A stretch of DNA of 64,000 nt from Thermoplasmatota archaeon (GTDB taxonomy: Archaea; Thermoplasmatota; E2; DHVEG-1): positions 9,839-73,838 of the forward strand of contig JAFGML010000039.1 in the NCBI GenBank assembly GCA_016927555.1. The letters are read 5' to 3'. Of this stretch, positions 4,011-43,500 are shown piece by piece. The first letter of the stretch is position 1. Every line of letters starts with the position of its first letter. The notes under the pieces are model-generated. The model was not told the origin of the DNA. It made no database searches and saw only the letters and a program-made list of their open reading frames with translations. The position numbers and the translations under genes are program-made.

Positions 4011-4063
4011 TTGTCACTCAATATCAATGTCATTTTCCTCCATATGAAACCGGAAAACACAAA

Positions 4064-4082
4064 GGTAGACCTTCGGTCTACC
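4064..4082. promoter_or_regulatory. Second copy of palindrome GGTAGACC-ttc-GGTCTACC, 72 bp from the first
   Basis: Read directly. Same 8-bp arms with a different 3-nt spacer. Located in the 3960-4220 intergenic space between the RHH gene start and the stop of the upstream peptidase gene. Confidence 0.5.
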
Positions 4083-4220
4083 ATGTTAATATTTAGCATA
4101 TAACGTGGTGATGGTTCCATCATCCCTCGTACGAAGAATCACCACTGCAGTACTTATAGTTTGTTTCCATCACCCAGAACCACACACTACTACGTCAGCA
4201 TCATTTTTTTTTAAAATAAT

Positions 4221-18754: not shown

Positions 18755-19525
18755 TTAGATCTCCTTTGTGTATCGTTTGAGAAGGTAGTATACTGCTCCG
18801 AAGAGGAGTACTCCTCCGATGACATCGGCTATCCAATGGATTGCTAAATAGATAACTGAGCCGATGACACAACAGGCAGAGAAGTACGCTAGATACAAAA
18901 ATTTTTTGTTGGTTGTCTGGGAAACAGCATAAACAACAAGTAACGCCATCGCGACATGGAGCGACGGGAAGCAATTATTAGTGGTTGTGGTGGCATAGAA
19001 GAAAGATTCTACACCAGGAAGTGCGGTGTTCAGCGCTGAGGTCACACCGTAGTAGGTGTACACGTTGGTAATGGGGAGAAACAGGTAGAACGGCAGTGCG
19101 GCGGCGTAAACCAGCAACAAGCCAAACGCATATGTTTTCATAGCGTTTTTTTCATTGGTGATAAGGAAATACAGCAAGGAGAACCAGAGGATGAAGGGGT
19201 ACAAGATGAGGTAGATGAAGACAAAGAAGTACACTAGGACGGGCGTCCAGTGCTGTGAGAACCAGTACACCACACCGTTTTCAAGGGTGTGTATCGTGGC
19301 TGCGAAGTCGGTTCCAATAAGCTGTGTCGTGTAGGGGTCGATGGTGTTGACTTCAAGCAGGTGTAGGAGGACGACACCTGCGATGAGTGCAAGGTACCAT
19401 CGGAATGAGAGTACTCTGGTTTGGTACTCAGACCATGAGGTGTGCCAGATTTTTTTTGGCACAACGACAGCGAGAGCAAGAAGAAACAGCAGAAGGTTCA
19501 ACAGTGCAATGATACTTACTCCCAC
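18755..19525 (-). CDS. PAP2-superfamily-like polytopic membrane protein
   Basis: About 6 TM helices. PSGH-like FPSLH and HxxxD (LAIHWIADV) motifs. Its stop abuts the cca start, giving a single-nt junction. Confidence 0.45.
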   Translation of the reverse strand: MGVSIIALLNLLLFLLALAVVVPKKIWHTSWSEYQTRVLSFRWYLALIAGVVLLHLLEVNTIDPYTTQLIGTDFAATIHTLENGVVYWFSQHWTPVLVYFFVFIYLILYPFILWFSLLYFLITNEKNAMKTYAFGLLLVYAAALPFYLFLPITNVYTYYGVTSALNTALPGVESFFYATTTTNNCFPSLHVAMALLVVYAVSQTTNKKFLYLAYFSACCVIGSVIYLAIHWIADVIGGVLLFGAVYYLLKRYTKEI

Positions 19526-26111: not shown

Positions 26112-26133
26112 AGTACCGTTGTGGTGCTGTGAG

Positions 26134-26634
26134 ATGAAGGCGTTGTTCATCGGTCGTTTTCAACCCTTTCATAATGGACATTTACTTGTCTTACAACACA
26201 TGAGTACAGAGTATGCTCAGATCATCATCGGCATCGGCTCATCCCAGTATCACCATACCATGGATAATCCTTTTTCAGATGAGGAACGACGACAGATGAT
26301 TGTAAAATCACTTGAGGCTGCAGGCATTCACTCCTATCGCCTGGTGTCGATTCCTGACATCCATGATCCACCTCGATGGGTGGACCACGTCTGTTCCCTG
26401 GTGTCTGACTTTGATGTTGTCATCGCGAATAATCCACTCACTCGGCAGTTATTTTCGGAGAAAGGGTACACAGTCAGAGGTACTCCATCTTTTCATCGTA
26501 CCCACTATTCGGGGAAAGAAATCCGGAGACGAATGGTGCATGGTGAATCGTGGCATGAGCTGGTTCCTGAGCCAGTGAGTCGTCTGATTCACTCCCTTGA
26601 TGGTGTCAAACGAGTGAAGAACCTCCAGCCGTAG
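26134..26634 (+). CDS. nadM: Nicotinamide-nucleotide adenylyltransferase, archaeal NadM type
   Basis: MKALFIGRFQPFHNGH is the (H/T)xGH nucleotidyltransferase motif. The track start at 26119 adds MWCCE. The start at 26134 is preferred. Confidence 0.85.
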   Translation: MKALFIGRFQPFHNGHLLVLQHMSTEYAQIIIGIGSSQYHHTMDNPFSDEERRQMIVKSLEAAGIHSYRLVSIPDIHDPPRWVDHVCSLVSDFDVVIANNPLTRQLFSEKGYTVRGTPSFHRTHYSGKEIRRRMVHGESWHELVPEPVSRLIHSLDGVKRVKNLQP

Positions 26635-26718: not shown

Positions 26719-27639
26719 ATGACACTGGTGAGACGAGAACAGGGTACGAAAATACATGTGTATCTAGAGCTCCTTCGGCCGTTTACCTTGCTTGCTCCTT
26801 TCATCGTCTCAAGTTGTGTGATAATAGCCGGCTTAGTGTCATCTGGGCGATCTGATCTGTCGTATCTCTCCCTTCTCAGTACCGTTCTCTCCGCTAGCCT
26901 CTGTTTCGTCTTGCTCAACGGAGCATCAAACGCGTTGAATCAAGCCACTGATTGGAGAGAAGATGCGCTGTCAAAACCCTACCGTCCAGTCCCACGCGGG
27001 CGTCTCTCAGTTCAGGAGGCGTACACGGTCTCGGTCATCTTGTATGGGACTGCCCTGCTCCTCTCCTTCACTGTGCATCTGCTCTTTAGTCTCTTTGTGG
27101 TATGTATCGCATGTTTTTCAATTACCTATTCGGTGCCGCCACGTATGAAAAGAATACTGCTGGTGAATCAGCTCTGGGTTGCTCTCCCCCGAGGCTTCCT
27201 TGGTATCGTAGGATCCTGGAGTGTGTTTGGAAATCCGTTTGATGCTCTTCCGCTAGCTATTGGTGGCATCGCTGCGCTCTTCCTCTTTGGTGGTACTGCC
27301 ACAAAGGATATCGTTGATGCAGAGGCTGACAGAGCAGCTGGGACAAGAACACTGGTCAATGTCTTTGGAGTAAAACCAACAGCCTGTGTCTCTGTCCTCT
27401 GCATGGTGAGTGCGTTTGGTCTGATTATCCCTCTCGTGTCTCTCCATATCCTGGCTGACTTCCTGTTACCACTGACCTTCCTCTGCTTCTTCAGTGTGCT
27501 CATCGGATGGTTAATGGTGAGAAATCACAGAAACACAACATGTGAGAACACCTCAGCGTGGACGTTGATGTATGCGACGTACTTTATTTTTGCTTTGAGT
27601 TTTGCTGTGTTTTCCATTTCTTTTTCTGTCGTAGCGTAG
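26719..27639 (+). CDS. UbiA-family prenyltransferase (paralog type A)
   Basis: 8-9 TM. Asp-rich motifs NALNQATDWREDALSKPYRPVPRG and KDIVDAEADRAAG. Confidence 0.8.
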   Translation: MTLVRREQGTKIHVYLELLRPFTLLAPFIVSSCVIIAGLVSSGRSDLSYLSLLSTVLSASLCFVLLNGASNALNQATDWREDALSKPYRPVPRGRLSVQEAYTVSVILYGTALLLSFTVHLLFSLFVVCIACFSITYSVPPRMKRILLVNQLWVALPRGFLGIVGSWSVFGNPFDALPLAIGGIAALFLFGGTATKDIVDAEADRAAGTRTLVNVFGVKPTACVSVLCMVSAFGLIIPLVSLHILADFLLPLTFLCFFSVLIGWLMVRNHRNTTCENTSAWTLMYATYFIFALSFAVFSISFSVVA

Positions 27640-30600
27640 TCCTAACATCCGCTGCGAGGACACAGGTGACGATGATTGTTCCGATGAGGACTAGATAAAA
27701 CCCTGTGCTGAACCCCCAACTCGACTGTAGGGGGATGTCCTCATCACCGATGGAGACCGTGATGGTACCGTCACCGAAAACAGTGCCAAGGCTTGTCTCC
27801 GCAAGCTTCGTTGTGCCAAGATAGAATGAGAAGAGGATAACCAACAAGAGACACACAGCGACAAAACTCAACAGGAGCGCGTACGTTTTTTTCTGTGCTC
27901 TCTTAATGATAATGCCGATGCTTAAACTCACACAGACAAGTGTTGCGAGAGGAAACATAGCGCTGAGGAATGAGAGGAAGATGTCTGGTAGTTCTTCTGT
28001 GTCTAAAAACACACGGTCCTGGTATGTCGTCTGTTGAATCATGACCCCAGGGTTGATGTACATAGCGGTGTGTCGTTCTGCTGGTGGTGTCAGGCTGTCT
28101 CCATGGAACTGCCACCAGGGCTGGACGAAGGAGAAAGCGATCAGCAGAATCACAAGGCATTTTAACAGTGAGGAGACTGAAAATTTCTTTAAGAGTGTTA
28201 ACCCAAGAAAGAAGCAAAATAACCCGAAGAGAAACAGTGAAACCAGAAGGGATACCAAGGATTCGAGGGTCGTGACAAACGTCAGATGCCGATCGTTGGT
28301 TAACTCCAGGTCTTTTTCTCCGATGAGTTCTTCAGCACAGTAGGCTTGAATAGTGTATCGAGCCGGTGGCAGAGAAATAATTCTATCCTGCGTACGTGTA
28401 ACAGACAGTCCATCGCGAAGGACGACGAAGGTGATGCCCTCCTGGGTGACGACGTTTCCCTTCGAATCAAGCAAATCGATCGTCAGTTGAAAAGAGGCGG
28501 TAAACTCCATGCGGATATGGTCACTACTATTAGGAATCGTGACACGTTGAGTATCAATGAAATCACCATAGGTGAGTTGGAGGATGTACTCCCCGGCAGG
28601 GATGCGTTCAAACACGAATTGTCCCTCCCCACTGTCCGCGGGGGTGAGTTGAATGGCTCTCTGCTCTGAGGTAGTCAACAACATCGGTGTAACACTGACG
28701 CCTGGTGGAAGCCCAAGGGTGTCTGTTACAGTGATGGTAATGGTGTACAATTCCAAGGTGACATCTTCAGTGTATCTCTTCAAGGTTTGCTGGAGTTCTT
28801 TGTCATAGACGACGAAATCTTTGTACTCTGCGTGAACTGTGTAAGGATCTTGAGGGTTGTAGGGAACCTTTAGAAGAAGCTCTCCTGTACTCGGTGTTGT
28901 GTTGTCATCAAACAACACACCGTCTCTGTTGGTGACTGATCCGTGGATTCCTGGGATGCCGTTCCCCTGTTGGTCAAGGAAGAGTATAGTGATGGTGCGC
29001 TGCCACGTACACCTGACTATCACGGTTTTGTCCTTGTCCAGAACAACAACAGTTGCACCAGTGAACATTTTTGTGCTGTTCCCTCGTTTCCAGAAGACCT
29101 TGACGAGGTACTCCCCCTCGAGGGTTTCATAGAATGTTTTTGAAGCCCTCGTGAACACGCTCCGATTTGCAGCACCTGCGGCGATGAGCTGTCCTTCGCG
29201 GTGCAGCTCAATCCACATCACTGGAAAGAGGCGTGCAGTCAGGTTTGCTAACCGTGGAAATGACAGGTGTGTCCCGCCAAACCGTGTGATGACTGTTAGG
29301 TTATACTGGTGGAGTTGCCGTTCAAAGGGTGTGTCGCCAAACTGTGAGCGCGATTGAACCAGCGTCTGGTAGACTCGTGATTCATGTTGGACTGCTTCGT
29401 ACCCCCCATGCTCAGAGTAGTACACTTCTGCATTGAAGTTAACTACTAGGTCTGAAGGAATCATGATATCGTGACTTTGTCCAGGTTCGTAAGAGTTTCT
29501 GCCAAAGTTGATCGACGCGTAGTCTACTTCTGTTCCTAGGAAGTTGAAATACTCTTTTTCTGTCACTTTAATCTGGATGCCATCGTGTTCATCTGTCCCT
29601 GATGTGACGATTCCTTTGTTAGATGAGAAGATCACAGCAGACGCTTTCCCTGCTTTGCCGTCACCAGCGCATAGCCATGCTTCTGCGCCAAGGTCCTCAT
29701 CGTTTCTGAAGGGGATGATCCACTCACGGTCCTTTGTGGCAGGATCCTGGTTCATTTGATATTCCTTGATGATATCATTTTTATCGTAGAAATTCAGATA
29801 GGGGGGTATCTGACCGAAGTTGAGAGCATCGATGCTTGCGCTCTTCGATTTCAGTTGGATGATTGAGCCAAAACGTCCATCGATGTTCTCGATGCCTTCC
29901 ACGGTGGCCTCTTGGAGCATCTCATGCTTTACAGACACATCGATTTTCTTGTCGTCAACAGGGTAGTAGTAGTATTTATACAGCGCTGTTGTCCTGATAT
30001 CTTTCTTTTTTGATTCGCTGATGATGCCGAATTGCACCATCAGGTTTCCATCAACGAAGATTTTTTTATCAATGAACGTTTGATCTGAGGAGCTCTCATC
30101 TTTCTCTTTACTGCCGTAGTAATACGAGAAAGCAAAGGAGACAATCTGATCTGCTCCGAGGAGATCATAGGTGTGCGCTCCTTTCTTTTGTTTGACGACC
30201 ACCTGAGAAATAGATCGATCTAATAGATTTCCTTCTTGTCCTACCGCGTAGAGACAACAGCCGTCTTCTGTGACGCCGTAGTAGGTTGCTTGTGCTGAGA
30301 CATCAGGGAGCGGCGATGAGCTGTAGTACGCGTCTTTGACGCTGACATGGTCTGTGTACTGTACGCATGTGGTCTCGTGGTCATGGTAGTAGAGGAAGTA
30401 TCGTTCCGTTCCATCTGCGTAGGTCGGGATGAGGAAGACAACGTTGCATGCTGTTATGTGTGTCGGGTCGCTTGAGTCTGTTTTCAGGTTGTAGATCTGT
30501 GATTCTAGCTCATGCCATGCAGCGTGGTGCCAGCAGCAGATGCGGATCGATGTTCTGTTCTCATCTTCTGACCAGCATGGGTTTTCGAAGGTGATGCGAA

Positions 30601-30784
30601 GGTCAATTGGTTGGTAGCGCGCAGTCGAATCACTCGTGGTAATTGGCAGACGTAGTTCCTGCTGGTACGACCATGCGGTATTCCATCGAGGCAGTACATC
30701 GTCCTGAGCGGTTCCCGAGAGGCTTACCGCTGGAAGGGCGAGGAGGAGAAGGATGGTTGCTAGCGCTACTGGTGATCTGTGCAT
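27584..30784 (-). CDS. Large secreted protein with carboxypeptidase-regulatory-like beta-sandwich domains and a C-terminal polytopic (6 or more TM) region
   Basis: Signal peptide MHRSPVALATILLLLALPAVSLSG. Motifs FERIPAGEYILQLTY and ISLPPARYTIQAY. C-terminal TM helices (LVSLFLFGLFCFFLGL, VILLIAFSFV, LATLVCVSLSIGIII, LLLSFVAVCLLLVILF, FYLVLIGTIIVTCVL). The 3' end overlaps the convergent UbiA gene by about 56 nt. Confidence 0.6.
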   Translation of the reverse strand: MHRSPVALATILLLLALPAVSLSGTAQDDVLPRWNTAWSYQQELRLPITTSDSTARYQPIDLRITFENPCWSEDENRTSIRICCWHHAAWHELESQIYNLKTDSSDPTHITACNVVFLIPTYADGTERYFLYYHDHETTCVQYTDHVSVKDAYYSSSPLPDVSAQATYYGVTEDGCCLYAVGQEGNLLDRSISQVVVKQKKGAHTYDLLGADQIVSFAFSYYYGSKEKDESSSDQTFIDKKIFVDGNLMVQFGIISESKKKDIRTTALYKYYYYPVDDKKIDVSVKHEMLQEATVEGIENIDGRFGSIIQLKSKSASIDALNFGQIPPYLNFYDKNDIIKEYQMNQDPATKDREWIIPFRNDEDLGAEAWLCAGDGKAGKASAVIFSSNKGIVTSGTDEHDGIQIKVTEKEYFNFLGTEVDYASINFGRNSYEPGQSHDIMIPSDLVVNFNAEVYYSEHGGYEAVQHESRVYQTLVQSRSQFGDTPFERQLHQYNLTVITRFGGTHLSFPRLANLTARLFPVMWIELHREGQLIAAGAANRSVFTRASKTFYETLEGEYLVKVFWKRGNSTKMFTGATVVVLDKDKTVIVRCTWQRTITILFLDQQGNGIPGIHGSVTNRDGVLFDDNTTPSTGELLLKVPYNPQDPYTVHAEYKDFVVYDKELQQTLKRYTEDVTLELYTITITVTDTLGLPPGVSVTPMLLTTSEQRAIQLTPADSGEGQFVFERIPAGEYILQLTYGDFIDTQRVTIPNSSDHIRMEFTASFQLTIDLLDSKGNVVTQEGITFVVLRDGLSVTRTQDRIISLPPARYTIQAYCAEELIGEKDLELTNDRHLTFVTTLESLVSLLVSLFLFGLFCFFLGLTLLKKFSVSSLLKCLVILLIAFSFVQPWWQFHGDSLTPPAERHTAMYINPGVMIQQTTYQDRVFLDTEELPDIFLSFLSAMFPLATLVCVSLSIGIIIKRAQKKTYALLLSFVAVCLLLVILFSFYLGTTKLAETSLGTVFGDGTITVSIGDEDIPLQSSWGFSTGFYLVLIGTIIVTCVLAADVRTTLRQKKKWKTQQNSKQK

Positions 30785-30914
30785 ACAGCCTCTTGTGCAA
30801 TATTTATACTGTGTTTCTATATAAAAAGAGTTGTTTTATGAATTTAAGTACTTTTGTACTGAGGCACACTGGTTGTTCTCCTGTTGTTTTAAAAAGGTAC
30901 GTAGGGTCCTAAAG

Positions 30915-31880
30915 TTAAATCGCAGGGATGAAATCGAGCTGTCCTAGTTCACCAAAAATAATTAACGTGGTGAATCCGATGGCGTAGAACAGGTAGGTTA
31001 CGTACATCAGTGACCAAGCCTGGGTATTCTCAAGGGTTTGACTCTTATACTGTTTTAACATTAAATAGAAAATGAGGAAGCTTGGGATGATGAAGATGGT
31101 GAGTGGGAGGAAGTATGCATCGATGAGGTGGTAGTGAATGCAGAAGGGGATGGCGGCGAACGGGATGACAAGGAAGGGTAGGGAGATGTACGCTGCTTTT
31201 TTCAGTCCAAAGGTGTTTATGAGGGTTCGTGTCCCTGTCTTGCGGTCTGCTTCACAGTCGACAATGTCTTTTGTCGTCATGGCTCCCATGAAAAATACGA
31301 GCGCAATCACACCGAAGGTCAAGGGTACAGGGTCGAAGGGGTTGCCGAAGACGCTCCAGGAGGCAAGAATCGCAAACAGTCCTCGGGGGATGGCAATCCA
31401 CGTTTGGTTCACAAAGAGGAAGCGCTTCATGCGTGGGGGGAGAGAGTAGACCACGGTGAACACCATGATGAGGAAGACAAACACTCCGAAATAATTGTTT
31501 ATGGTCACGGCTCGAAGCAAGGCGAACAGGTAGAGGATGTAGGCGATGCTCTGTGCCTCATCCCGTTCCACGACTTTTCTGGGAATAGGACGGTATGGTT
31601 TGGAGATGAGATCGGATTCCAGGTCTGTTGCTTGGTTCAGCGCGTTCGATGCCCCATTGAGAATGGCAAGGGTGAGGCTTGCTTGGCCGATGATAATCCA
31701 CCAGTCGGGGAAGTCCTCGAAGTTGTCGTTGTACACCAAGCTGGCGAACATGATGAACATGGAGACAAAAATAGGTGCCAGGAGGGTGAATGGTCGCAGT
31801 AAATCGATGTACCCCCTTAGTCTTTTTGAAAGGAACCGACTTTTTTTATAGGGTTCCTTCATGGTTAATTTCACGGTCAT
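30915..31880 (-). CDS. UbiA-family prenyltransferase (paralog type A, related to 26719..27639)
   Basis: NALNQATDLESDLISKPYRPIPRK and TTKDIVDCEADRKTGTRT motifs. Polytopic. Confidence 0.8.
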   Translation of the reverse strand: MTVKLTMKEPYKKSRFLSKRLRGYIDLLRPFTLLAPIFVSMFIMFASLVYNDNFEDFPDWWIIIGQASLTLAILNGASNALNQATDLESDLISKPYRPIPRKVVERDEAQSIAYILYLFALLRAVTINNYFGVFVFLIMVFTVVYSLPPRMKRFLFVNQTWIAIPRGLFAILASWSVFGNPFDPVPLTFGVIALVFFMGAMTTKDIVDCEADRKTGTRTLINTFGLKKAAYISLPFLVIPFAAIPFCIHYHLIDAYFLPLTIFIIPSFLIFYLMLKQYKSQTLENTQAWSLMYVTYLFYAIGFTTLIIFGELGQLDFIPAI

Positions 31881-32031
31881 TTCAGCTCCATGAGTCCATT
31901 TTTTAGGTGTGGTAATGAGAGACGTACATTATATTAATTATCCTCAAGACGTATCCAAGAAGAACGATTCATTATTTTTTATATAAATATTACTATTATT
32001 ATTAAAAAAGGTGTACGAACAAGCCGTAGTG

Positions 32032-33408
32032 CTACGGCAACAAATCCTGAAGGGCTAGTGCAGAGTTGATCGCGCAATTGATACCGATGCCTGATGCTTT
32101 GACGCAGTCACCAATGAGGTAGAGGTTATCCACAGGGGTTTGTATGTCGGGTTTGGTGTTTCGAATTGTCTTTTCTACTCCGTCTAAATGCCAGACCGCT
32201 GGGTAGACAGCCCACTGCAGATGAGCGTGATAGTCAGGGATGATGCGTGCGAGGTTTCTATCAAGGGCATGTTTAAGCTTCTTCAATGTTTCTTTCTCCA
32301 CAGCCTCCCGTGGTGTGCAGATGATGTAGGCTTGGACCAGGTAGTGTTCTGGTGGTGAGAGCCCTGTTTCTGGTTTCGCGGAAATAAAATCGATCATGCC
32401 TGCAGCGTCGTTGCCATCGACGCCTATGTCTCGTTCAATGAAAATGAATGTTTTGCCAAGCAATCGAGGATCAATGGTGGTGAGCGCATAGTACGCGCAG
32501 AGACTCCCAGTGCCCTGCAGTGCTTTCATCATCGTGACGTACTCTGGTGGAAAGTGTTCTGTATCAGCTAATGTAAACAGCTGCTGAACGAGAGTATTTG
32601 AGATGACGTAGTCAAACAAGTGCGTGGTCTTGGCGACGATCACACCCTCTGCTCTCTTGTTGCGAATGAGGATTTTCTCCACCGGACTCTTCACGTGGAT
32701 TCTTCCACCGTGTTTCTTGATGTACTCTGCAAGGGTGTCCGAGAGCATCTGAAGACCGTGCTGTGGGTAGAACACACCGCGTAACCGCATGTCTCTTTGT
32801 GTGCGGAACACTTCACCAGTGGAGATGTACTCTAGGTTGTTAATCGTGCTGATCAATCGAGGGTTGAGCTCTAAGACTTCCTTCATTTTTCCTTTGCCGT
32901 ATTTCTGAATAGTCTCTGTCATTGGAATGGCATCCAGACCTTTCATGGTTTTTTCTCCCGCAAGTAACAAACGGACAATATTTGGGATCATGGAGAGTTT
33001 GTCAGCAGTGGTGACAAAATAACCAAAGTGGCTGTTCTTTTGCTCATGCAACCGGGAGTGATAAATGGTGATGTCAGTGAAGTCGTCCTGAAGAGTACTT
33101 CTCAGTTTTTCAATGATGCCTCCCCCAATCATGTGGAATCCAACGTCCAGGGTGTAGCCTTCAAACATCTTTTGACGTACGATTTCCTCCAGGGCCGGTT
33201 CTGAAAACGCGATGTGGGTAAAACTGTTCGAAAGGATTGCCTTGTACGAGTCATGTGTGTGAGATGACATCTGTATGGAGCGGGCTCGTCCACCGACGGT
33301 GTCTTCTCTTTCGAAGATATCGACGGAGTAGCCTTTTTGTATGAGTAGTGCGCCTGCGGTCAACCCACCGATACCTGCACCAATGATACATACTCTTTTT
33401 GTCGTCAT
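32032..33408 (-). CDS. CrtI-family FAD-dependent oxidoreductase (phytoene-desaturase-like)
   Basis: N-terminal Rossmann VCIIGAGIGGLTAGALL...DIFEREDTVGGRARS. 458 aa. C-terminal FAD-binding GDCVKASGIGIN. Confidence 0.75.
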   Translation of the reverse strand: MTTKRVCIIGAGIGGLTAGALLIQKGYSVDIFEREDTVGGRARSIQMSSHTHDSYKAILSNSFTHIAFSEPALEEIVRQKMFEGYTLDVGFHMIGGGIIEKLRSTLQDDFTDITIYHSRLHEQKNSHFGYFVTTADKLSMIPNIVRLLLAGEKTMKGLDAIPMTETIQKYGKGKMKEVLELNPRLISTINNLEYISTGEVFRTQRDMRLRGVFYPQHGLQMLSDTLAEYIKKHGGRIHVKSPVEKILIRNKRAEGVIVAKTTHLFDYVISNTLVQQLFTLADTEHFPPEYVTMMKALQGTGSLCAYYALTTIDPRLLGKTFIFIERDIGVDGNDAAGMIDFISAKPETGLSPPEHYLVQAYIICTPREAVEKETLKKLKHALDRNLARIIPDYHAHLQWAVYPAVWHLDGVEKTIRNTKPDIQTPVDNLYLIGDCVKASGIGINCAINSALALQDLLP

Positions 33409-33421
33409 ATGTCAAGACACC

Positions 33422-34729
33422 CTATGGGACGTCCTTCGTCCTATGAAAGCGGTATTTCAGAGAGCTAATAAAGTACCTTCTGATGATTTTCCACTTGTAC
33501 TCCTGTACACTTAATTCTCCGGTGATGACACGAATGATGAGGTTTGTGAGAATCGGATCTGTGCTTGCTATTTTGAGGACTTGTTCCGCTCGTTGGGTCG
33601 TGTTACGTTTCACAACCGCTGAGATCAAATCAATATCCCTTCCAAATTCTTTCTGCCACCGTGTCTGATATCTCGATAAAAACTCACGTCCGAATTGTCT
33701 TTTCTGAAATGCTTCAGCGATGACACCCGCAGCGATTTCTCCTGAGACCATGGCATAGTAGATACCTTCCCCGGAGAGTGGATTGATAAACCCGGCTGCG
33801 TCACCGACAAGCAGGAGCCGATCAGCATACGTGTGCTCTAAGGGATGCGTCGGTAATGCTCCGCCTTTGAGTGGCGCATCTTGTAGATTTTTCGGTACCA
33901 AATTTGTTTCTTGTAGAAATGCGATATACTCCTTATACGCTTCACGCAGATTCACTTTATGGTTTTGGTCTTGTTTGAATGCTTGAATGACACCAAATCC
34001 AATGTTGAGATGTTCTTTTTTTGGAAACACCCATCCATAGCCTGTGAGAGTCTTGAAGCGTGAATGCACATAGCAGTGTCGAGATGATTTGAAATACTCA
34101 TCCATGGTGGGTTCAGGGACGTGAAATTCCTGCATGAGGCAGACACCTTTTTCTATCCCTGTTTTTTGCAACCCTGATTTTTTTGCAACGATGCTTGAGA
34201 CACCATCAGCACCGATGATGACGTCTGATTCTACGGTTTCACCCTGCTTCGTCATCACCTGTGCTATCTCATCGGTGATGTGGATCGCTGAGACTGGTGT
34301 GTGTGCTTGGAAGACGGCTCCTGCATCTGTCGCACATTTCACAAGTGCAGCATCAAAAGTCCTTCTCAGTACTGTGGCTATCAATGGTGTGGTAGTTTGT
34401 GCTTCAACTCTATACCGAAGTGAAGGAGAAAAAGTGGTTCCACTTGATGAATACGACTCAATGATATTTTCATTCACAACATAGGGGAATCGTTGCAGGA
34501 CTCGTATGGGGAGCCCGCCACCACATGGTTTATCCCGAGGGAATGTTTCCTTATCGAGTAGTAGCGTCTTCAACCCGCGTTCTGCTAGATACTTTGCTGC
34601 GGTTGAACCGGCAGGACCTGCGCCAACGATGGTTACGTCGTATTTCATTCGTCCCCCATCTTTTTTTTCACATCCGTGGTTTAAACAATTTTTCTCCAAG
34701 TAAGGGTGTGAAGATAATGTACCAGACAA
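33422..34729 (-). CDS. Geranylgeranyl reductase family flavoprotein (digeranylgeranylglycerophospholipid reductase-like)
   Basis: YDVTIVGAGPAGSTAAKYLAERG ... PRDKPCGGGL (the PxCGGG motif of the GGR family). True start is probably the internal Met MKYDV (about 34648). Confidence 0.82.
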   Translation of the reverse strand: MSGTLSSHPYLEKNCLNHGCEKKDGGRMKYDVTIVGAGPAGSTAAKYLAERGLKTLLLDKETFPRDKPCGGGLPIRVLQRFPYVVNENIIESYSSSGTTFSPSLRYRVEAQTTTPLIATVLRRTFDAALVKCATDAGAVFQAHTPVSAIHITDEIAQVMTKQGETVESDVIIGADGVSSIVAKKSGLQKTGIEKGVCLMQEFHVPEPTMDEYFKSSRHCYVHSRFKTLTGYGWVFPKKEHLNIGFGVIQAFKQDQNHKVNLREAYKEYIAFLQETNLVPKNLQDAPLKGGALPTHPLEHTYADRLLLVGDAAGFINPLSGEGIYYAMVSGEIAAGVIAEAFQKRQFGREFLSRYQTRWQKEFGRDIDLISAVVKRNTTQRAEQVLKIASTDPILTNLIIRVITGELSVQEYKWKIIRRYFISSLKYRFHRTKDVP

Positions 34730-35672
34730 TTGGCACTAGTATCAGGAGGAATGTTGTGACTTCATCGACGATGCACAGCATCATTATGGGGACAATGGCG
34801 TAGCGGACAAACGACTGTACGCCAATGATTTTTCTGATTTTATTTCGATCAAACACCTTGAGGGACAGCAGGGTGACATCAAAGTAGAGTGACAGAATGA
34901 TGAACAAGAACAGCAGGATGAGTTCCCAGAGTTCATAGGAGTAGTGAAACAGAACTGCTGGGAGAAAGAACAAGACTGCTGCGCCCAGGCGAAGTCCCAG
35001 ACCAAAGGCTTGAAACCCCCGCGGGATAACTATCTTTGTTTCTTGGACTTTGACTCCAGAGGTTAGCGCGATGTTGCTTACGTTCATTTTGTAATCATGG
35101 TCTGCGTCCTTAATCCCGTTTTGTACTGCATTCATGTACAAGATGTTTTCAAAGGTGAGTAGGAAGATGATCCAGGTGATGACGTTGGGTTGCCCAAAGG
35201 ACAGGGCGCCAAAGAGAAAGATCAAAGCCACTGATATCGCAACGAGAAAATCAGAGCCAGCGATTTTTTTCCCATAGACGTCATAGGTCGTCCCAAGGAT
35301 GCCTGCGAGGATGATGCAGGTCATGCCTATGAATTTGTAGTAGTCGACAGGTTGGTTGTACCAGAGTAAGGCGATGAAGAAGAAAGCGCAAAACGCGAGC
35401 AGAAACGTAATCATCAACCCGTTTTTTTTTGAGACTTCACCACTCACCAATGGTTTTTTTTTCAACTCATCAACGTGTCGATCGAGTTCGACATCAACGA
35501 TGTCATTGACGAGGAACCCAAAGACACTTGCACACGCCCCAATGATGAACACGAGCGTAAGAGAGTACAGATCAGAGATCCCAATGGTCAGCGCTGCGAT
35601 GACTGGTACAATTCCTAGAGCGCCAATGCCTGGTAAGCGAAGCAGTCGGGCGTACGCAGAGACCTTTAACAT
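34668..35672 (-). CDS. UbiA-family prenyltransferase (paralog type B, DGGGP-synthase-like)
   Basis: FLVNDIVDVELDRHVDELKKKPLVSG (NDxxDxxxD...KP motif). Multiple TM helices. Confidence 0.75.
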   Translation of the reverse strand: MLKVSAYARLLRLPGIGALGIVPVIAALTIGISDLYSLTLVFIIGACASVFGFLVNDIVDVELDRHVDELKKKPLVSGEVSKKNGLMITFLLAFCAFFFIALLWYNQPVDYYKFIGMTCIILAGILGTTYDVYGKKIAGSDFLVAISVALIFLFGALSFGQPNVITWIIFLLTFENILYMNAVQNGIKDADHDYKMNVSNIALTSGVKVQETKIVIPRGFQAFGLGLRLGAAVLFFLPAVLFHYSYELWELILLFLFIILSLYFDVTLLSLKVFDRNKIRKIIGVQSFVRYAIVPIMMLCIVDEVTTFLLILVPIVWYIIFTPLLGEKLFKPRM

Positions 35673-35728
35673 AGAGGTGTGTTAGAAGATTACGATATTT
35701 GAGCTTTTCTCCGTCCTATGGCGTCTTC

Positions 35729-36664
35729 TTAGTGGAAGACTTCGAGGAGGATGAACAGTTGGAACACGATGATCATGACGCGTGTTCCTGTGCGTTCGTA
35801 CCGTTCAAATGCTTTCCATATGCGTTTCTCATCGTTGGTGGATATCACCACTCGATACGTCAGCAGCCAGGTGAGCATCAGTGCTGCAGCGAGTAGCCCT
35901 CCTCCAATGAGGTAGACGGTGCCAAATACTTGAGGCATGTGGACACCTGCCCAGTCGTACGCTGACAACGGGAAGAGAGGGATGAACAGCAGGTAGAACA
36001 GTAAGGCCAGCTGCATTGATCGTTTCCGTCCAAGACGCACAGGTGTTGTTTTGAACCCTGCTTTCAGATCGCCGATGTAGTCCCCGGCACACACCATGAT
36101 TTCTCTGCCTGTTTCTTGGAAGAAGATAGCCAAGGCGAGTGGCAGCATGAGCAGTGGTTGCTCGGGAAACACAGCCAGACCGCCCCAGTAGGGTATCGCG
36201 CCGACGCCGAAGGCAACGGCCATATGGCCGATGAGTCCATGGTGCTTTCCATAGTAGTTGTAGTACAACCCGATGATCACCAGCGCCACGGTGAGCAGGG
36301 CCACCTGCCAGTTGATCTGCCCTGTGTCCGCGTAGTTGACGAAGGCTGCGGCAAAAATCGAGAAGACCATCAAGATAATGCCTGTGTAGTACACTGTTGT
36401 TTCTTTGAGGATTCCTGAGGGGACGGGTTTATGTGGTCGGTTTACTTTATCAGAGTCTAAATCGGTGATGTCGTTGTGAAACATCGTACCTGTCGAGAGG
36501 AGTGCTGGTGCGACTATGAGGAGGAGAAGTTGGACTATAGAGAGGCTGATGTCGTTATAGACGGCACAGTTCAGAGCGCTGACCACAGCTCCAAAGGCAC
36601 ATAGAAAGAGTATCGGTGGGCGAATCATGCGTACCCATGCAACTGCTAAGGTCCCTATGCCCAT
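35729..36664 (-). CDS. UbiA-family prenyltransferase (paralog type B)
   Basis: MFHNDITDLDSDKVNRPHKPVPSG motif. 8 or more TM helices. Confidence 0.75.
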   Translation of the reverse strand: MGIGTLAVAWVRMIRPPILFLCAFGAVVSALNCAVYNDISLSIVQLLLLIVAPALLSTGTMFHNDITDLDSDKVNRPHKPVPSGILKETTVYYTGIILMVFSIFAAAFVNYADTGQINWQVALLTVALVIIGLYYNYYGKHHGLIGHMAVAFGVGAIPYWGGLAVFPEQPLLMLPLALAIFFQETGREIMVCAGDYIGDLKAGFKTTPVRLGRKRSMQLALLFYLLFIPLFPLSAYDWAGVHMPQVFGTVYLIGGGLLAAALMLTWLLTYRVVISTNDEKRIWKAFERYERTGTRVMIIVFQLFILLEVFH

Positions 36665-36739
36665 AGTGCCGTATAATAGAAAACAGCCTTTATTACTTTA
36701 CTGGTTTTGCGTTGCGACCTTCTCGGAGGAGAAATTGTG

Positions 36740-37417
36740 TTACGAGAAACCAGTGTACTCAAACAGTCGGACGAGGGCGCCATGGATGACAAACACGATA
36801 GTCCCTGTAATGGAAATAGAGGTAATGGCAAGGAGCACCTTTCTGTTCTCTGTGAACCGTGATCGTTCGATGAGTAAGGTTGCGACAGACATAAAGAAAA
36901 TCAACACGAACCATCCGATGAAATTCAGAATGGGAACCTCATAGAATCGAATGCCTGTGAGAGATTCTTTCCAGATCCACCAGTTGTTGTAATGGGCGAT
37001 GGGGTCCTCCAGGAGATCGAGACAGACGCCAAAGAGCCCTGCGGTTGCTGAGATCAACAGAATCTGCATGAGATTTCGTTTGTGATAGAGACGGGCAATC
37101 ACATGTCGTCCCATGTTCATGAACAGGAAGAGATTCACACTCCACGCTAGCAAGATAATGAGTGGGACACCGCCATTAACAACCGAGAGATATATGATGT
37201 ACCCTGGGTAGTAGTACCGCTCACTGGCTACTCCCGCTGATTCAATGAATAAGGTGGCGATGATGATAGGCAGGAAGTACATGATAGTCTTTTTCCACCC
37301 GTAGGTTTTGTAGGAGTGAACGACAAGGACGATCCACGCGATAGCGATGATACCAATGAACAGCGCAAGGAGGTTTGTGCCTTCTCCAAACTGTTGGTTG
37401 ATCTCTAGGAATATCAT
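36740..37417 (-). CDS. Polytopic membrane protein in the isoprenoid island (possibly a carotenoid/lipid-modifying integral membrane protein)
   Basis: 225 aa, about 6 TM. Conserved-looking loop ERYYYPGY and HYNNWWIWKE. Functional guess from context only. Confidence 0.35.
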   Translation of the reverse strand: MIFLEINQQFGEGTNLLALFIGIIAIAWIVLVVHSYKTYGWKKTIMYFLPIIIATLFIESAGVASERYYYPGYIIYLSVVNGGVPLIILLAWSVNLFLFMNMGRHVIARLYHKRNLMQILLISATAGLFGVCLDLLEDPIAHYNNWWIWKESLTGIRFYEVPILNFIGWFVLIFFMSVATLLIERSRFTENRKVLLAITSISITGTIVFVIHGALVRLFEYTGFS

Positions 37418-37421
37418 GGTA

Positions 37422-37754
37422 TTATGACACCTTAGCTCTGGTTGTCTTGTATTTTAACAACAGCATCACGATGAGAGGAATGCTGGCGAGTATCGCTCCC
37501 AGAATCGTTGGGACAAACTGTGAGAGTGCCCCGATGATGATGATCGTAATCCAGATGAACAGGTACAGGACGAAGTAGAGATTGACCTTTCTCTTGAGCA
37601 TGGTTGTATAGTCAGTTGATAAGTTCTCAGGCAGTGGTTCCTCCTGTTTTTTACCAGTAAAAAAGAGGATGAGCGTCACAATGATGCCAGTGATCCCTAA
37701 GGGGAGGAACAGGAGAATGTTATCCAGGATGTATTGGACGACAGTGTTCTGCAT
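37422..37754 (-). CDS. Small membrane protein (3 TM)
   Basis: 110-aa ORF whose stop lies 5 nt before the start of 36740..37417. Confidence 0.35.
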   Translation of the reverse strand: MQNTVVQYILDNILLFLPLGITGIIVTLILFFTGKKQEEPLPENLSTDYTTMLKRKVNLYFVLYLFIWITIIIIGALSQFVPTILGAILASIPLIVMLLLKYKTTRAKVS

Positions 37755-37892: not shown

Positions 37893-38531
37893 ATGATTAT
37901 TACAAAACAAAAAGATGTTGAGACACTAGTAAAAAATCTGTCTGGTAGAACAGTGTTTCTCGTTGGGTGCAGTGAATGCGCAACGCTCTGTCACACAGGT
38001 GGTGAGGGGGAAGTGGTGTCGTTAAAGACAGTACTTGAGAGCCATGACATTGTGGTCTCTGGCTGGGTTGTGTTGGATCCTGCTTGTCATCTGATGAACG
38101 ATAAGCGGATGCTGAAGACGTATGACCAGCAGGTGCGTTCAGCTGAGGTGATTCTGGTTCTTGCGTGTGGCAACGGAGTGCAAACGGTCGCTGAACTGTT
38201 TCCCACAAAAGAGGTGCGAGCAGGTACAGATACGATGTTTTTAGGGGAGATTTCTCGGACTACCGAGTTTGATAAACGATGTATAATATGTGGGGAGTGC
38301 CTCTTGGATTCTTTTGGTGGCCTTTGTCCACTTTCCCGTTGTCCGAAGTTGATGCTGAATGGCCCCTGTGGTGGATCTGTTGGTGGGAAGTGTGAGGTGG
38401 ATTCGACGATGGAGTGTGTCTGGGACACCATCTATCAGAAAGCAAAACAACAAGGAAATCTTGACCAGCTTGCTGTTCTTCAACCACCGAAGGATTGGTC
38501 GAAGTCCTTGGAGATGAAACGGAGACTCTGA
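37893..38531 (+). CDS. metV: MetV-like zinc-ribbon protein (MTHFR C-terminal-like domain)
   Basis: Cys-rich. VGCSECATLCH, CIICGECLL, and the signature CPKLMLNGPCGGSVGGKCEV (NGPCGG motif). Confidence 0.65.
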   Translation: MIITKQKDVETLVKNLSGRTVFLVGCSECATLCHTGGEGEVVSLKTVLESHDIVVSGWVVLDPACHLMNDKRMLKTYDQQVRSAEVILVLACGNGVQTVAELFPTKEVRAGTDTMFLGEISRTTEFDKRCIICGECLLDSFGGLCPLSRCPKLMLNGPCGGSVGGKCEVDSTMECVWDTIYQKAKQQGNLDQLAVLQPPKDWSKSLEMKRRL

Positions 38532-38532
38532 C

Positions 38533-39447
38533 ATGGGGTTTCGTAGTACTCTTGAACAGGTGCTTGCAGAAGGCCGGTTTGTCGTGACTGCTGAGATTGG
38601 TCCTCCAAAAGGAGCAGATGCAGAGAAGATTCGGCAGAAAGCAACGCTTCTGAGAGGGTTTGCCCATGCGTTTAATGTCACGGATAATCAGACGGCGGTT
38701 GTCCGGCTGTCCAGCCTTGCAGCAAGTGTTATTCTTCTCCAGATGAAGCTGGAGCCGGTGATGCAGATGACGTGTCGTGACCGGAATCGTATTGCGCTGC
38801 AAAGTGATGTGCTAGGTGCGGCTGCCCTGGGGGTTCGGAACATGCTGTGTTTGACGGGTGATCATCAGTCGTTTGGGAATCATCCTTCCGCACGAGGGGT
38901 GTTTGATGTGGATTCTATTCAGCTGCTGCACATGATTGGCGACATGCGGGATCGTGGTGTATTTCAGAGTGGTGATAAATTGCGTGCGACGCGTCCTGAG
39001 GTGTTTCTTGGTGCCGCGGCGAATCCCTATGCTGATCCACTTGAGTTGCAGCTGATGCGACTGCAGAAAAAAATTGCTGCAGGCGCTCAGTTTATTCAGA
39101 CGCAAAGCGTGTATAATGTGGAGAAATTTTTATGCTGGATGGATGCGGTGCGTTCCTTGGGTCTTGATAAGGAAGTCCACATCCTTGCTGGTGTCACACC
39201 GTTGAAATCCGTGAAGATGGCTGAGCGGATGAAATTTCATGTACCGGGAGCTGATGTACCGGATGCGGTGTATCAGAGAATGAAGAGTGCGTTGAATCCC
39301 AAGGAAGAAGGTTATGCGATTGCTTTGGAAACTCTGCGGTCTTTAAAAAAGGTGTCTGGTGTGAAAGGAGTCCATCTGACTGCCTTGTTTTGGGAGGAGA
39401 TTATCCCTTCGTTGGTAAAAGACGTAGGGCTACACCCTAGTCTCTAG
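38533..39447 (+). CDS. metF: Methylenetetrahydrofolate reductase, MetF family
   Basis: 304 aa. TIM-barrel MetF-like blocks (FVVTAEIGPPKG, NVTDNQTAVVRLS, MLCLTGDHQS). Starts 2 nt after the metV stop. Confidence 0.78.
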   Translation: MGFRSTLEQVLAEGRFVVTAEIGPPKGADAEKIRQKATLLRGFAHAFNVTDNQTAVVRLSSLAASVILLQMKLEPVMQMTCRDRNRIALQSDVLGAAALGVRNMLCLTGDHQSFGNHPSARGVFDVDSIQLLHMIGDMRDRGVFQSGDKLRATRPEVFLGAAANPYADPLELQLMRLQKKIAAGAQFIQTQSVYNVEKFLCWMDAVRSLGLDKEVHILAGVTPLKSVKMAERMKFHVPGADVPDAVYQRMKSALNPKEEGYAIALETLRSLKKVSGVKGVHLTALFWEEIIPSLVKDVGLHPSL

Positions 39448-40519: not shown

Positions 40520-43500
40520 ATGTTAGAACAACTCGGCAGAATCATTGAAAAACGACCGTGGGCGGTTGTCATCCTCATTCTCCTGATTACCATAGGGTTC
40601 TCTCTCAATCTTCCTTCCTTGAAATTTCAAACCAACTTTGAGGATTTCGCTCCAGAGAACGCTCAAGTGCAGGCAAACGACCGCGTTTTAGACTACTTTG
40701 GGATGAGCTACCAAACCGTCATCGTTTATCTCAAAAAGGAGCAGGCAACAAGCACGATAACCCCCCAAGTCGTACGAGACCAATATCAGTTGATTAAAAA
40801 CTTCATGGACATCCCAGAAGTCAACGCAAGCATCTCCCTGACCACGTTTGTCGACATCATCTGCCAAATGGAATTTAACAAAACCATAGATACGTGCACA
40901 GATGAGCAACTTCAGAGTGCAATTCATGATTTACTCACTGAACAGTCCTCAGAACGTGTTGCTCTGTTTCCTACGGATGATCCCAATGAACCCGTTGATT
41001 ATGCTCGTGGTCTCAGGACACAGTCAGTTGAGAGTGCGGACCTTAAGAACTGCTACCTTCAAAAAGACGCGACAACCTTTCACTTTTCCTTTGAAGTCTA
41101 TTCGCTGGAGGATATCACCACCCCGCTTACTCCCCCTTTCTCTCGCGTGAACGCGATGGAATGGTTCTTGGGGTTTGAAAACATCTTACTTCCTCCTGAA
41201 TACGCCATGAAGTATCAACTCGCTGTACGGATTCAACCAACGTCGCCTTCATGGGAACTTGGCCAAGGCCTCCTTGAGAATCTGCGGCACCTCCTGAAAG
41301 AACGACGAACCATTCGGAATTCCTATGCAGCTTCTGCGTACCTCTGGGTTCAGCCGCCTGGACAAGACCTCTCGTTTCCCCTGCCGCTGACCTCAGCGAA
41401 CGTTACGTTTGATTCCTCTCACAACACCATCACCGTTGCAGTGTCACGACACGAGCTTGCTACGTACGGGATAGCTCCTCGATATGGGTCCTTTGAACTC
41501 CCCGCGAAATTAAATAATTTTTCAGCAGGGGTCAGGTACTATTCAACTCCCCTGCTCCATCGTCCCGGCAGCCGTGTGGTGGTCAACACCAGCTTTCTCT
41601 TTGATCGCTTGGAACGATTGCTCAGTCGCCCTGTTCTTGGTGGCCTTGCGGCACGTCTGTTCGAGCGGTACGGGATTGCTGTGGATGATCTCTCCTCGTT
41701 TTCCGAGATGATGCACGGCACAGAAATGGAAGCGCCAACCTTCTCTCTTACCTCACTTGAACCGTTCTGGACGTTGACTGATGGTGTACCAGACTCAGGA
41801 GTCTCACCGACCATCTATGCTGTGTTGCCTCAGTTGTTCTCGGATTTACGAATCAATGCCCTCTCATTTATCTCATCAGACTATCCACAGACACACCAAC
41901 CGCAGTCCAGCATCATCATCGTGCAACTGCAGGTTGATACTTCTAATACGGAACTTCTCTCCAGAGTCAATGGGAACATCCAACGCACGATTGAGACCTT
42001 TGATACACAACACTCCAGCATCACCCTTGAAGCCACGGGTGAAGGGATTGTCACAACGCAAATCAACGATGTGACCATGGAGGCAAATACGATCATCGGT
42101 CCAATGATATTCATTCTCATCCTCGGCATCCTGTTTGTAGCGTTCAGAAAACCCTCCTACGTGTTCCTCCCTATCCTCGTGTTTGCGTTCTCCTGCATCT
42201 GGCTGTTTGGAACCATGGCCTTGCTTGGGATTTCATTTAGTGTGATTGCTGTTGCGTTGCTTCCCTTGAACATCGGGCTGGGTGTTGAGTACTCCGTGAA
42301 CATTTTGTACAACTACCGGTTGGAGATACGCAAAGGACGAACACCGGCAGACGCCATTCGCCTTTCTATAAAAGAAGTTGGGATTGCTATCTTCTTAGCC
42401 TGGTTCACCACGTTTGTGGCGTTCCTGTCGTTCCTCAGCGCGACCCTGCCGCCCGTACGAGACTTCGGGATTTTCCTAGCCCTGGGTATTACGTACACCT
42501 TTGTCATCACCATGACGTTTCTGGTGGCACTCCGCTACATTGTTGATCGTCGACAGCAGCACCTCAACACTACTCAGAAGAATCGCTCGTTTTCTATGGC
42601 AGCAACCATGGGGCGTGTCGCCCAGGTGTTGATGCGTCATGAGAAGAAAGTCTTCCTGGTGACCATCATCCTCTGCTTGGTCATGGGGACTGCAGTATCA
42701 CAGCTCAAATCAGGGTTCAGCATGACGCAGTTCATCCCTCAGGATAACCCTGCCGTCCGTCTGTTTTCAACCATAGAAGAGGAGTTCCCGTTCTCGAGTC
42801 AAGAGCAGGAGTACATCCTCATTGAGGGCAATGTTGCCACCGTGCAGGCGTTACAGGGCATCAAACAGACGCATGAGCAGTTGACTGATGATGTGTACGT
42901 TGCTCGAAAGACTGATCAGAGTCCAAAAGCTGAGAGCATCTTTACGATTATCCGTCAAGCAGTCGAGAATAATAACTCTCTTGTCTCCCGGTTTCAGATT
43001 GATGAGTCCACGGGTCTGCCAGCTACTGATGATGATGTCTATCGTCTCTACTCCTATCTCTACGAGAATGATGCCTATGCGATGCAGGTTCAAGGTGTGT
43101 TATCCAGGGACGGGACACTGTTTACTGCCACCATGATTCGCGTGTATATTGATTTACCCCTAGGTGTGGATGATGTCACAAAGGAGTTTGAAACGTTGAG
43201 TGCGGAGCTCAACGACGATCTGACAGACTACGGTGAGGCTGAGGCGATCGTCACTGGGACGACACTGATCACCTTGACGATACTGCAGAATATGACCGAA
43301 AGTCAGATTCTCTCCACCGCCATTTGTTTTATTCTGGCGGCCATCATGCTGTCGTTGATTTACCGCAATCCAGTACTAGGATTAATTGGTATGATTCCTG
43401 TGAGTATTTCTATTATCTGGGTGCTGGGTAGCATGTATTTCATCGGCTATTCCCTCAATATCTTGACGATCACGGTGACCAGTATTACGATTGGTGTGGG

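Follow-up and report, generated by a model that had tools for sequence, protein, structure and literature searches.

A modular locus of UbiA prenyltransferases, a CrtI-superfamily flavoenzyme, a geranylgeranyl reductase and a CruF-like protein in Thermoplasmatota, with a possible role in ether-lipid tailoring

The locus described here is a gene island at positions 26719–37754 of a 64,000-nucleotide stretch of DNA (hereafter the window) from a Thermoplasmatota archaeon (assembly GCA_016927555.1, contig JAFGML010000039.1, positions 9,839 to 73,838 of the forward strand). Its nine genes encode four UbiA-family prenyltransferases, a flavoprotein of the CrtI superfamily, an enzyme of the geranylgeranyl reductase (GGR) family, a PF04240 protein, a 110-aa membrane protein (TM110) and a 1066-aa surface protein. 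An earlier reading of the DNA, made without database searches (the sequence-only reading), had singled out this region as an isoprenoid-lipid island, and all nine open reading frames are present at the coordinates first listed, except for the start of the GGR gene, which is corrected below. The proteins are identical to GenBank entries MBN1281120–MBN1281128, the names of which are all generic. Seven of the genes, from 37754 to 30915, are co-directional on the (−) strand with intergenic gaps of 4–151 bp. The island is flanked by housekeeping genes (NMN adenylyltransferase, LonB and MTHFR), and its boundaries had therefore been drawn correctly. A 171-aa cytidylyltransferase-like gene at 26119–26634 was considered as a further member and rejected, as it encodes the archaeal NMN adenylyltransferase (NMNAT). 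In the 151-bp gap preceding the prenyltransferase gene A2, an oligo-T run is followed by an AT-rich, TATA-like stretch, which suggests that A2 may be transcribed separately, probably from its own promoter. An AT-rich, TATA-like stretch also lies upstream of the TM110 gene. No tRNA or Rfam elements were found in the window.

All four UbiA proteins exceed the gathering score of PF01040 (34.2 bits). UbiA-A1 (26719..27639, + strand; 120 bits) is convergent with the gene of the 1066-aa protein, the 3' end of which it overlaps by 56 bp, and in many loci has kept NMNAT and LonB as neighbours. No gene of the locus is better conserved than that of its paralog UbiA-A2 (30915..31880, − strand; 114 bits), which is 84–85% identical in the related loci L001 and L005, compared with 72% for the CrtI-like gene. 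UbiA-B1 (34668..35672, − strand; 67 bits) is divergent and belongs to a lineage-specific clade together with B3, a subfamily seen in relatives. UbiA-B2 (35729..36664, − strand; 100 bits) is the most DGGGPS-like of the four.

The four proteins had been taken to form two pairs. This holds for A1 and A2, which are true paralogs with 46% identity, but not for B1 and B2, which share only 21% and represent two singletons, so that there are three subfamilies in all. In a neighbour-joining tree with E. coli UbiA, E. coli MenA, Roseobacter BchG and haloarchaeal DGGGPS as references, the clades A, B2 and B1 were each recovered with 100% bootstrap support and B1 joined B3 at 98%, while the deep relations between clades were poorly supported. 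The view that type B is a DGGGPS-like pair is wrong for B1, which stands in this separate clade and whose weak similarities lean towards 4-hydroxybenzoate prenyltransferases. Alignment with the same references showed that both Asp-rich motifs are kept in all four window proteins. The first is the canonical NDxxDxxxD in B1 and B2 and NQxxDxxxD, a form typical of homogentisate prenyltransferases, in A1 and A2; the second (DxxxD) is found in all four. The motif region reads NQxxDxxxD...KPYRPIP in A2 and NDxxDxxxD...KPVPSG in B2. The motifs quoted in the sequence-only reading are present, save that of B1, which had been given as KP..PSG and is actually KKPLVSG.

None of the window UbiA proteins reaches any NCBIfam equivalog cut-off, and the same scan gave no match to a model named for an elongase. 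The best annotated matches of A1, A2 and B2 are DGGGPS and (bacterio)chlorophyll-synthase-type O-prenyltransferases. B2 obtained the best DGGGPS-type score (NF009523, 119 bits; cut-off 269) and matched the M. jannaschii DGGGPS structure (6m31; E 3e-13) as well as the haloarchaeal DGGGPS (48.9 bits); its homologs are named DGGGPS by IMG. On the DGGGP synthase model NF009521 the window proteins scored at most 81 bits (cut-off 296), the cut-off of the further DGGGP synthase model NF009522 was not reached either, and on NF009525 the A-type proteins scored 57–63 bits. B1 gave no PDB match and showed weak N-terminal similarity to 4-hydroxybenzoate prenyltransferases. The generic 'prenyltransferase' models NF009516 and NF010119 and others like them are suspected to cover lycopene-elongase-like enzymes; on these two, the window proteins had no meaningful score (≤26 bits). 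An A-type UbiA gene (61–64% identical to A2) also occurs alone beside MTHFR, with the other island genes missing, in eight loci (L137, L141, L142, L151, L153, L160, L161 and L164).

The CrtI-superfamily FAD enzyme (32032..33408, − strand; 458 aa; MBN1281123.1) carries Amino_oxidase (PF01593, 72 bits) and NAD_binding_8 (PF13450, 48 bits) domains, and the N-terminal FAD-binding GxGxxG motif, GAGIGGLTAG, is invariant across the alignment of its family. Homology at the superfamily level is clear (Roseobacter CrtI; hhalign probability 97%, E 5.5e-11). The best curated matches are models of the CrtD/CrtI family, all far under their cut-offs: with 66 bits on TIGR02734 (cut-off 238) and 74 bits on the CrtD model TIGR02733 (cut-off 550), the protein fails the CrtI/CrtD family. 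Its best relatives in the PDB are the M. mazei oxidoreductase 3ka7 and, following this, the carotenoid desaturase 4rep. The AlphaFold model was of low confidence (pLDDT 61), and a fold search against the PDB confirmed the superfamily only.

Judged by profile scores, the CrtI-like subfamily is sharply bounded. Among 1.84 billion representative sequences, full-length hits to the family profile scored 687, 589 and 432 bits, the next being an Asgard protein at 225 bits; no Methanosarcina or Methanococcus protein of the Has type was named among the outgroups in this search. The nearest outgroup, annotated as 'phytoene desaturase family' protein, is encoded in a Lokiarchaeia metagenome-assembled genome (MAG) (L085; JBGVSQ010000147.1, 10001–11497), where it is surrounded by thiolase, OB-fold (ChsH2-like) and FAD-oxidase/CCG genes and by no prenyltransferases. 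The bacterial-looking member with 432 bits (L087) likewise has no UbiA neighbours. Therefore, the linkage to UbiA is specific to the lineage, and the outgroup neighbourhoods give no functional hint. The neighbours of Actinomycetota homologs are also unrelated.

Separated from the CrtI-like gene by 13 bp is the gene for a GGR-family flavoenzyme of 408 aa (33422..34648, − strand; MBN1281124.1). The protein exceeds the cut-off of TIGR02032 (225.6 versus 158.8 bits) and contains the catalytic PxCGG motif as DKPCGGG. Family and motif had been recognized before, but the gene had been placed at 33422..34729, with a TTG start; the start is most likely MKYD at 34648, which matches the 408-aa GenBank call, and there is consequently no overlap with B1. 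The enzyme scored 185 bits on the BchP/ChlP model, which is under the cut-off, 110 bits against Roseobacter BchP and 112 bits on MenJ. The archaeal digeranylgeranylglycerophospholipid reductase equivalogs NF041080, NF041160 and NF041385 were not reached (116, 106 and 80 bits versus 580, 780 and 700).

The protein encoded at 36740..37417 (− strand) has six predicted transmembrane (TM) helices. The sequence-only reading had suggested comparing it with CruF/DUF422 and had allowed for an unrelated transporter; PF04240 (Caroten_synth; CruF/DUF422) matched with 67.5 bits (gathering score 25; E 2e-18; profile positions 6–186 of 209), and the protein is a member of this family and no transporter. No NCBIfam model matched at E ≤ 0.01. 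Among the matches listed, 120 relatives with at least 64% identity are either unnamed or come from Thermoplasmatota or Euryarchaeota MAGs, and one close homolog bears the automatic IMG name 'bisanhydrobacterioruberin hydratase'. References for CruF, LyeJ and CrtEb were not found in the plasmid collection, in which the query matched only distant bacterial 'carotenoid biosynthesis protein' genes. CruF and CrtC add water at isoprene ends, and by family membership the CruF-like protein is a putative hydratase that would act on a C=C double bond in an isoprenoid.

TM110 (37422..37754, − strand), the product of the first gene in the co-directional run, has three predicted TM helices and matches no Pfam or NCBIfam family; its stop codon lies 4 bp from the CruF-like start. 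For the 1066-aa protein (27584..30784, − strand) an N-terminal signal-like helix, a large external region and five C-terminal TM helices are predicted, and the only domain matches, CarboxypepD_reg and the Ig-like Big_1, are below threshold. Its gene lies between the A-type genes in many loci, with an identity of only 57–59%. It is syntenic between A2 and A1, but no evidence of a role emerged. As a demonstrable member of the pathway it was rejected, given that synteny is all that ties it to the island and that the housekeeping flanks are equally syntenic.

A scan of metagenomes with an alignment of the A-type proteins yielded 80 related loci, which were annotated with hidden Markov models built from the window and the first relatives. 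A scan of genome contigs with a generic FAD-motif pattern mostly returned irrelevant cyanobacterial CrtI-like loci, the useful ones being L005, L006, L007 and L010. Of these, 57 extend 1.5 kb or more beyond the start of the A-type UbiA gene, and in 46 of the 57 the CrtI-like gene lies directly upstream of it. Hence, the isoprenoid genes are functionally linked, as had been proposed, and are no chance neighbourhood. The linkage is conserved: synteny is kept among relatives whose CrtI-like proteins are 48–72% identical to that of the window, and orthologs of the window genes are 46–85% identical in other loci. The lineage label follows the names that their sources give to relatives (Thermoplasmatales archaeon SM1-50, Thermoplasmata archaeon M9B2D and Euryarchaeota archaeon UBA33), which we take to belong to the sediment group MBG-D.

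Gene content was compared in the 'long' loci, that is those in which the CrtI-like gene is present and 6.5 kb or more of upstream sequence is available (n = 21). B1, which usually precedes the CrtI-like gene as its neighbour, was present in 16 of these, B3 in 14 and B2 in seven. A hydratase-like gene was found in 16/21, either CruF-like (eight loci) or similar to CrtC/AttH (ten loci), with both occurring in two loci and neither in five. TM110 accompanies the CruF-like gene in 8/8 cases. B2 was found in seven of the eight loci with a CruF-like gene and in none of the 13 without; a strong GGR match was seen in five loci, all of them among these eight. B3 was present in nine of the ten loci with a CrtC-like gene. 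These co-occurrences show that the island is built from modules. At its core are B1, the CrtI-like gene and A2, with the 1066-aa gene and A1 downstream, and to this are added two exchangeable cassettes, type I (TM110, CruF-like, B2 and GGR), as in the window, and type II (CrtC/AttH-like and B3).

The similarity of the type II proteins to CrtC is low. Two just exceed the PF07143 gathering score (24.1 and 25.0 versus 22.5 bits), eight of 14 members match this family at E ≤ 0.01, and PDB profile matches were limited to AttH (2ich) and the CrtC-domain protein 7a0q, both weak (E 0.008 and 0.024). Comparison with Roseobacter CrtC by hhalign gave a probability of only 6%. If these weak assignments hold, two unrelated hydratase folds are swapped at one position of the locus, which points to hydration as a step of the pathway. 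The association of each hydratase type with its own UbiA suggests modules that first prenylate and then hydrate, or alternatively transferases dedicated to modified donors.

Further variants were seen. L010 contains six UbiA genes, a family 2 glycosyltransferase (GT2) gene and two CrtC-like genes. Here (2077–5446), as well as in L159, L163 and L108, type II clusters carry an added GT2 (Glyco_transf_21-like) and a fifth type of UbiA, the best NCBIfam matches of which include the generic 'prenyltransferase' models NF009516, NF010119, NF009608 and NF009609 (39–55 bits). In L175 (3566–8924), a more distant relative, genes in the order B3 – B3 – B2 lie near a divergent GGR-like gene. At exactly the place that B1 takes in the window, L001 has a Y1-type (IS200-like) transposase (8059–8358), which is direct evidence of ongoing remodelling of the locus.

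Four known systems invite comparison. In haloarchaea, lycopene is converted to the C50 carotenoid bacterioruberin by the products of contiguous crtI/D-lyeJ-cruF genes, which are a desaturase of the CrtI family, an elongase/hydratase of the UbiA family and a hydratase of PF04240 (PMC11946383; PMC9258230). The island resembles crtD-lyeJ-cruF of Haloarcula japonica (c0507–c0505), the products of which act on acyclic isoprenoid ends, in that CrtI-superfamily, UbiA and PF04240 genes are contiguous (PMC11946383). It differs in having four UbiA proteins from three subfamilies with best scores on DGGGPS and chlorophyll-synthase-type enzymes, a flavoenzyme that falls short of the CrtI/CrtD cut-off, an additional GGR and a 110-aa protein, no crtB nearby, and a non-halophilic Thermoplasmatota MAG as host.

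Carotenoid-type enzymes are also known to act on archaeal ether lipids, the precedents being Has and Hgs (bioRxiv 10.1101/2025.10.20.683597; PMC12777485). Has of M. acetivorans (MA0127; Mori et al. 2015, pmid 26361140), a protein of the phytoene desaturase family, hydrates C2–C3 of unsaturated DGGGP-type lipids before these are saturated by GGR. The proximity of the CrtI-like and GGR genes in the window and the Methanosarcina protein 3ka7 as the best solved relative are reminiscent of this enzyme. The window protein belongs to a sharply bounded subfamily (members at 432–687 bits, nearest outgroup from Asgard archaea at 225 bits), and its gene is tied to UbiA genes, a tie not reported for Has. 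Hgs is an AttH/CrtC-like hydratase that, within the Ted-Hgs system, makes hydroxylated glycerol dialkyl glycerol tetraethers, i.e. tertiary alcohols on archaeal lipid chains (bioRxiv 10.1101/2025.10.20.683597). The relatives in which CrtC/AttH-like genes stand where the window has its CruF-like cassette recall this system, albeit with very divergent proteins, whereas the window has the CruF-like gene and neither an AttH-like gene nor a radical-SAM desaturase. Hgs homologs were found almost only in Methanobacteriota and Bathyarchaeota, and Thermoplasmatota were described as lacking Hgs (bioRxiv 10.1101/2025.10.20.683597). Finally, in DGGGPS with GGR and in (bacterio)chlorophyll synthase with BchP/ChlP, a UbiA O-prenyltransferase is combined with a GGR-family reductase that saturates the geranylgeranyl chain after its transfer, and it is these families that A1, A2, B2 and the window GGR match best among annotated proteins. 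All these scores, however, fall far short of equivalog level; the first Asp-rich motif of the A type begins with NQ instead of ND, and tetrapyrrole genes are missing.

The reading that we tentatively prefer, with slightly less than even confidence, is that prenyl chains of membrane lipids are tailored by this locus: prenyl groups are transferred, double bonds are hydrated or edited by redox chemistry, and the chains are then partially saturated. Family membership, gene order, linkage and cassette exchange are direct observations, from which we infer substrate, step order and chemistry. According to this model, the UbiA proteins would move polyprenyl groups from donors of the geranylgeranyl diphosphate type onto lipid acceptors. 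B2, and possibly A2, would be similar to DGGGP synthase and make the unsaturated ether lipid, and B1 and A1 would act on modified donors or acceptors. The CrtI-family enzyme and the CruF-like protein with TM110 would then edit specific double bonds in the still unsaturated chains, most likely by addition of water, which would give tertiary alcohols. Subsequently, the GGR paralog would saturate whatever double bonds are left. This would yield a hydroxylated ether lipid, which might also bear additional prenyl groups.

Ether lipids fit the pattern somewhat better than carotenoids for three reasons. The UbiA proteins are similar to DGGGPS and ChlG rather than demonstrably elongase-like, GGR is encoded directly beside the CrtI-like enzyme, and a search of the window and 88 related loci (~1 Mb; phmmer E ≤ 0.01) revealed no homologs of CrtB (phytoene synthase) or of CrtE/polyprenyl synthase. 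An uncharacterized modification of ether lipids had been the second option of the sequence-only reading, placed after a C50-type carotenoid pathway; strengthened by Has and Hgs as direct precedents (bioRxiv 10.1101/2025.10.20.683597), it is at least as likely as the first.

Several points weigh against a role in ether-lipid tailoring. No enzyme reaches a curated equivalog cut-off, the activities being extrapolated from superfamilies, and the CrtC-like assignments are weak. To our knowledge, all characterized members of PF04240 act on carotenoids. The CrtI-like protein is probably no close ortholog of Has, because it has the generic PGAP name 'NAD(P)/FAD-dependent oxidoreductase' while Has is named as a phytoene desaturase family protein. 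L174 (7281–11073), a more distant relative, has the arrangement CruF-like – B2 – B1 – A with neither a CrtI-like gene nor GGR; UbiA paralogs in arrays characterize the lineage as a whole, independently of the flavoenzymes. None of the readings accounts for the need for three to six UbiA subfamilies. In addition, the absence of crtB nearby is weak evidence, since the haloarchaeal crtD-lyeJ-cruF cluster is also without it (PMC11946383).

The main rival, which we consider unlikely, is a bacterioruberin-like (C45/C50) carotenoid pathway, in which one or more UbiA proteins would be lycopene elongase/hydratases of the LyeJ/CrtEb type, the CrtI-like enzyme a desaturase and the CruF-like protein the hydratase of the added C5 units, with GGR or other UbiA proteins decorating the product. 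The contiguous trio of families is indeed that of the haloarchaeal cluster (PMC11946383; PMC9258230), which is where the earlier C50 analogy holds, and the clear PF04240 match and the IMG name of a CruF-like homolog agree with it. So does a UbiA travelling with each hydratase type, which fits prenylation followed by hydration, and the fifth UbiA type beside GT2 in some relatives, the best models of which may cover elongases. Other findings speak against it. The window UbiA proteins score 55–119 bits on DGGGPS-type models, far above their scores on NF009516 and NF010119, the flavoprotein remains well under the TIGR02734 cut-off, CrtB and CrtE homologs were not found in the ~1 Mb of related loci, and the synthesis of bacterioruberin includes no step for a reductase of the GGR family. 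The sample names (SMTZ, WSSed) suggest sediments, where pigments are unexpected, although this is weak evidence.

Tailoring of membrane lipids might also take a form that combines both ideas. There is an outside chance, which we rate as low, that the product is an undescribed class of archaeal lipids whose chains bear extra prenyl substituents (C5 or longer), the rest then being saturated. The extra prenyl groups would be introduced by LyeJ-like C-prenylation or by O-prenylation of the tertiary alcohols made by the hydratase. In that reading, Thermoplasmatota of anaerobic sediments would use the logic of bacterioruberin synthesis on membrane ether lipids or on a polyprenyl scaffold that is not a pigment, and each cassette of UbiA plus hydratase would specify a different decoration.

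Less probable again is some other prenylated product, for instance a quinone-like or aromatic prenyl compound saturated by GGR in the manner of MenJ, or a modified polyprenyl-phosphate carrier of glycans for the cell surface. Several of the features given above could be read in this way, namely the weak similarity of the B1/B3 clade to 4-hydroxybenzoate prenyltransferases, the homogentisate-prenyltransferase-type motif of the A type and its scores on NF009525, the GGR score on MenJ, the GT2 genes of some clusters, and the surface protein and HAE3/MMPL transporter nearby. Neither the island nor its variants, however, contain genes for aromatic-ring biosynthesis, methyltransferases or decarboxylases, a quinone pathway does not predict genes of the hydratase type, and A1, A2 and B2 score higher on DGGGPS and chlorophyll synthase than on aromatic prenyltransferases.

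The least likely explanation, which we regard as very doubtful, is an ordinary locus for core ether lipids with B2 or A2 as housekeeping DGGGP synthase, GGR as housekeeping reductase and the rest as redundant or decaying paralogs: both steps are needed by every archaeon, B2 is DGGGPS-like by score and by the IMG naming of its homologs, and A2, itself highly conserved, is retained in lineages from which all the other genes are missing, compatible with an ancestral, perhaps housekeeping, gene, but the intact Asp-rich motifs in all four UbiA proteins, the fully supported clades with orthologs across loci whose identities indicate purifying selection, and the patterned recurrence of CrtI-like, CruF-like and CrtC-like genes speak against decay, and the type II loci are without GGR, which is therefore not the only GGR of the lineage.

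Beyond the island, a two-gene MTHFR module (37893–39447, + strand), consisting of a protein with a DUF5981 C-terminal domain and MTHFR, is divergent from TM110, a position kept in many relatives. It is followed by an RND transporter of the HAE3/MMPL type with a sterol-sensing-like domain (40520–43864, + strand), which scored 144 bits on the HpnN hopanoid-transporter model, far under the cut-off. This transporter is next to the island, with only the MTHFR genes in between, in the window and in L005, L089, L090, L093, L095, L099, L106, L116 and L118. It might export lipids, but the housekeeping flanks are equally syntenic. An archaeal CCA-adding enzyme is also encoded in the window, and the final 13 kb are occupied by one open reading frame of 4421 aa (50681–63946, − strand). 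Without a synteny link to the island are a secreted C25 (gingipain-like) peptidase with a PKD domain (4221–6473, − strand), a 1225-aa NosD/beta-helix/PKD surface protein (13661–17338, − strand) and a PAP2-family phosphatase (18755–19525, − strand), which could be a polyprenyl-diphosphate phosphatase.

The enzyme families found here and the general logic of isoprenoid-chain tailoring, with prenyl transfer, flavoenzyme chemistry, hydration and reduction, are already known. New are the combination of genes, the subfamilies restricted to the lineage, the arrangement in cassettes and the host, and no description of the cluster turned up in literature searches. Public data contain such sediment Thermoplasmatota, which are uncultured, in abundance, with more than 120 clusters of close homologs per queried gene in many metagenomes. 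Has and Hgs are the only hydroxylating enzymes known so far. Modified and hydroxylated isoprenoid ether lipids serve as environmental and palaeoclimate proxies.

The locus is a well-supported and experimentally tractable lead to an archaeal lipid, and involves no new principle. It provides a set of candidate genes that can be cloned, comprising three UbiA subfamilies, a new CrtI subfamily, CruF- and CrtC-like hydratases and a GGR paralog, which together could make an undescribed lipid. The variation in cassettes is a natural experiment that ties gene content to lipid structure. If the carotenoid explanation were true, C50-type chemistry would be extended beyond halophiles and actinobacteria. 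If, as we tentatively prefer, the substrates are ether lipids, PF04240 and the CrtI superfamily would be extended beyond carotenoids, and undescribed lipids made by this locus, if they exist, could be unrecognized sedimentary biomarkers.

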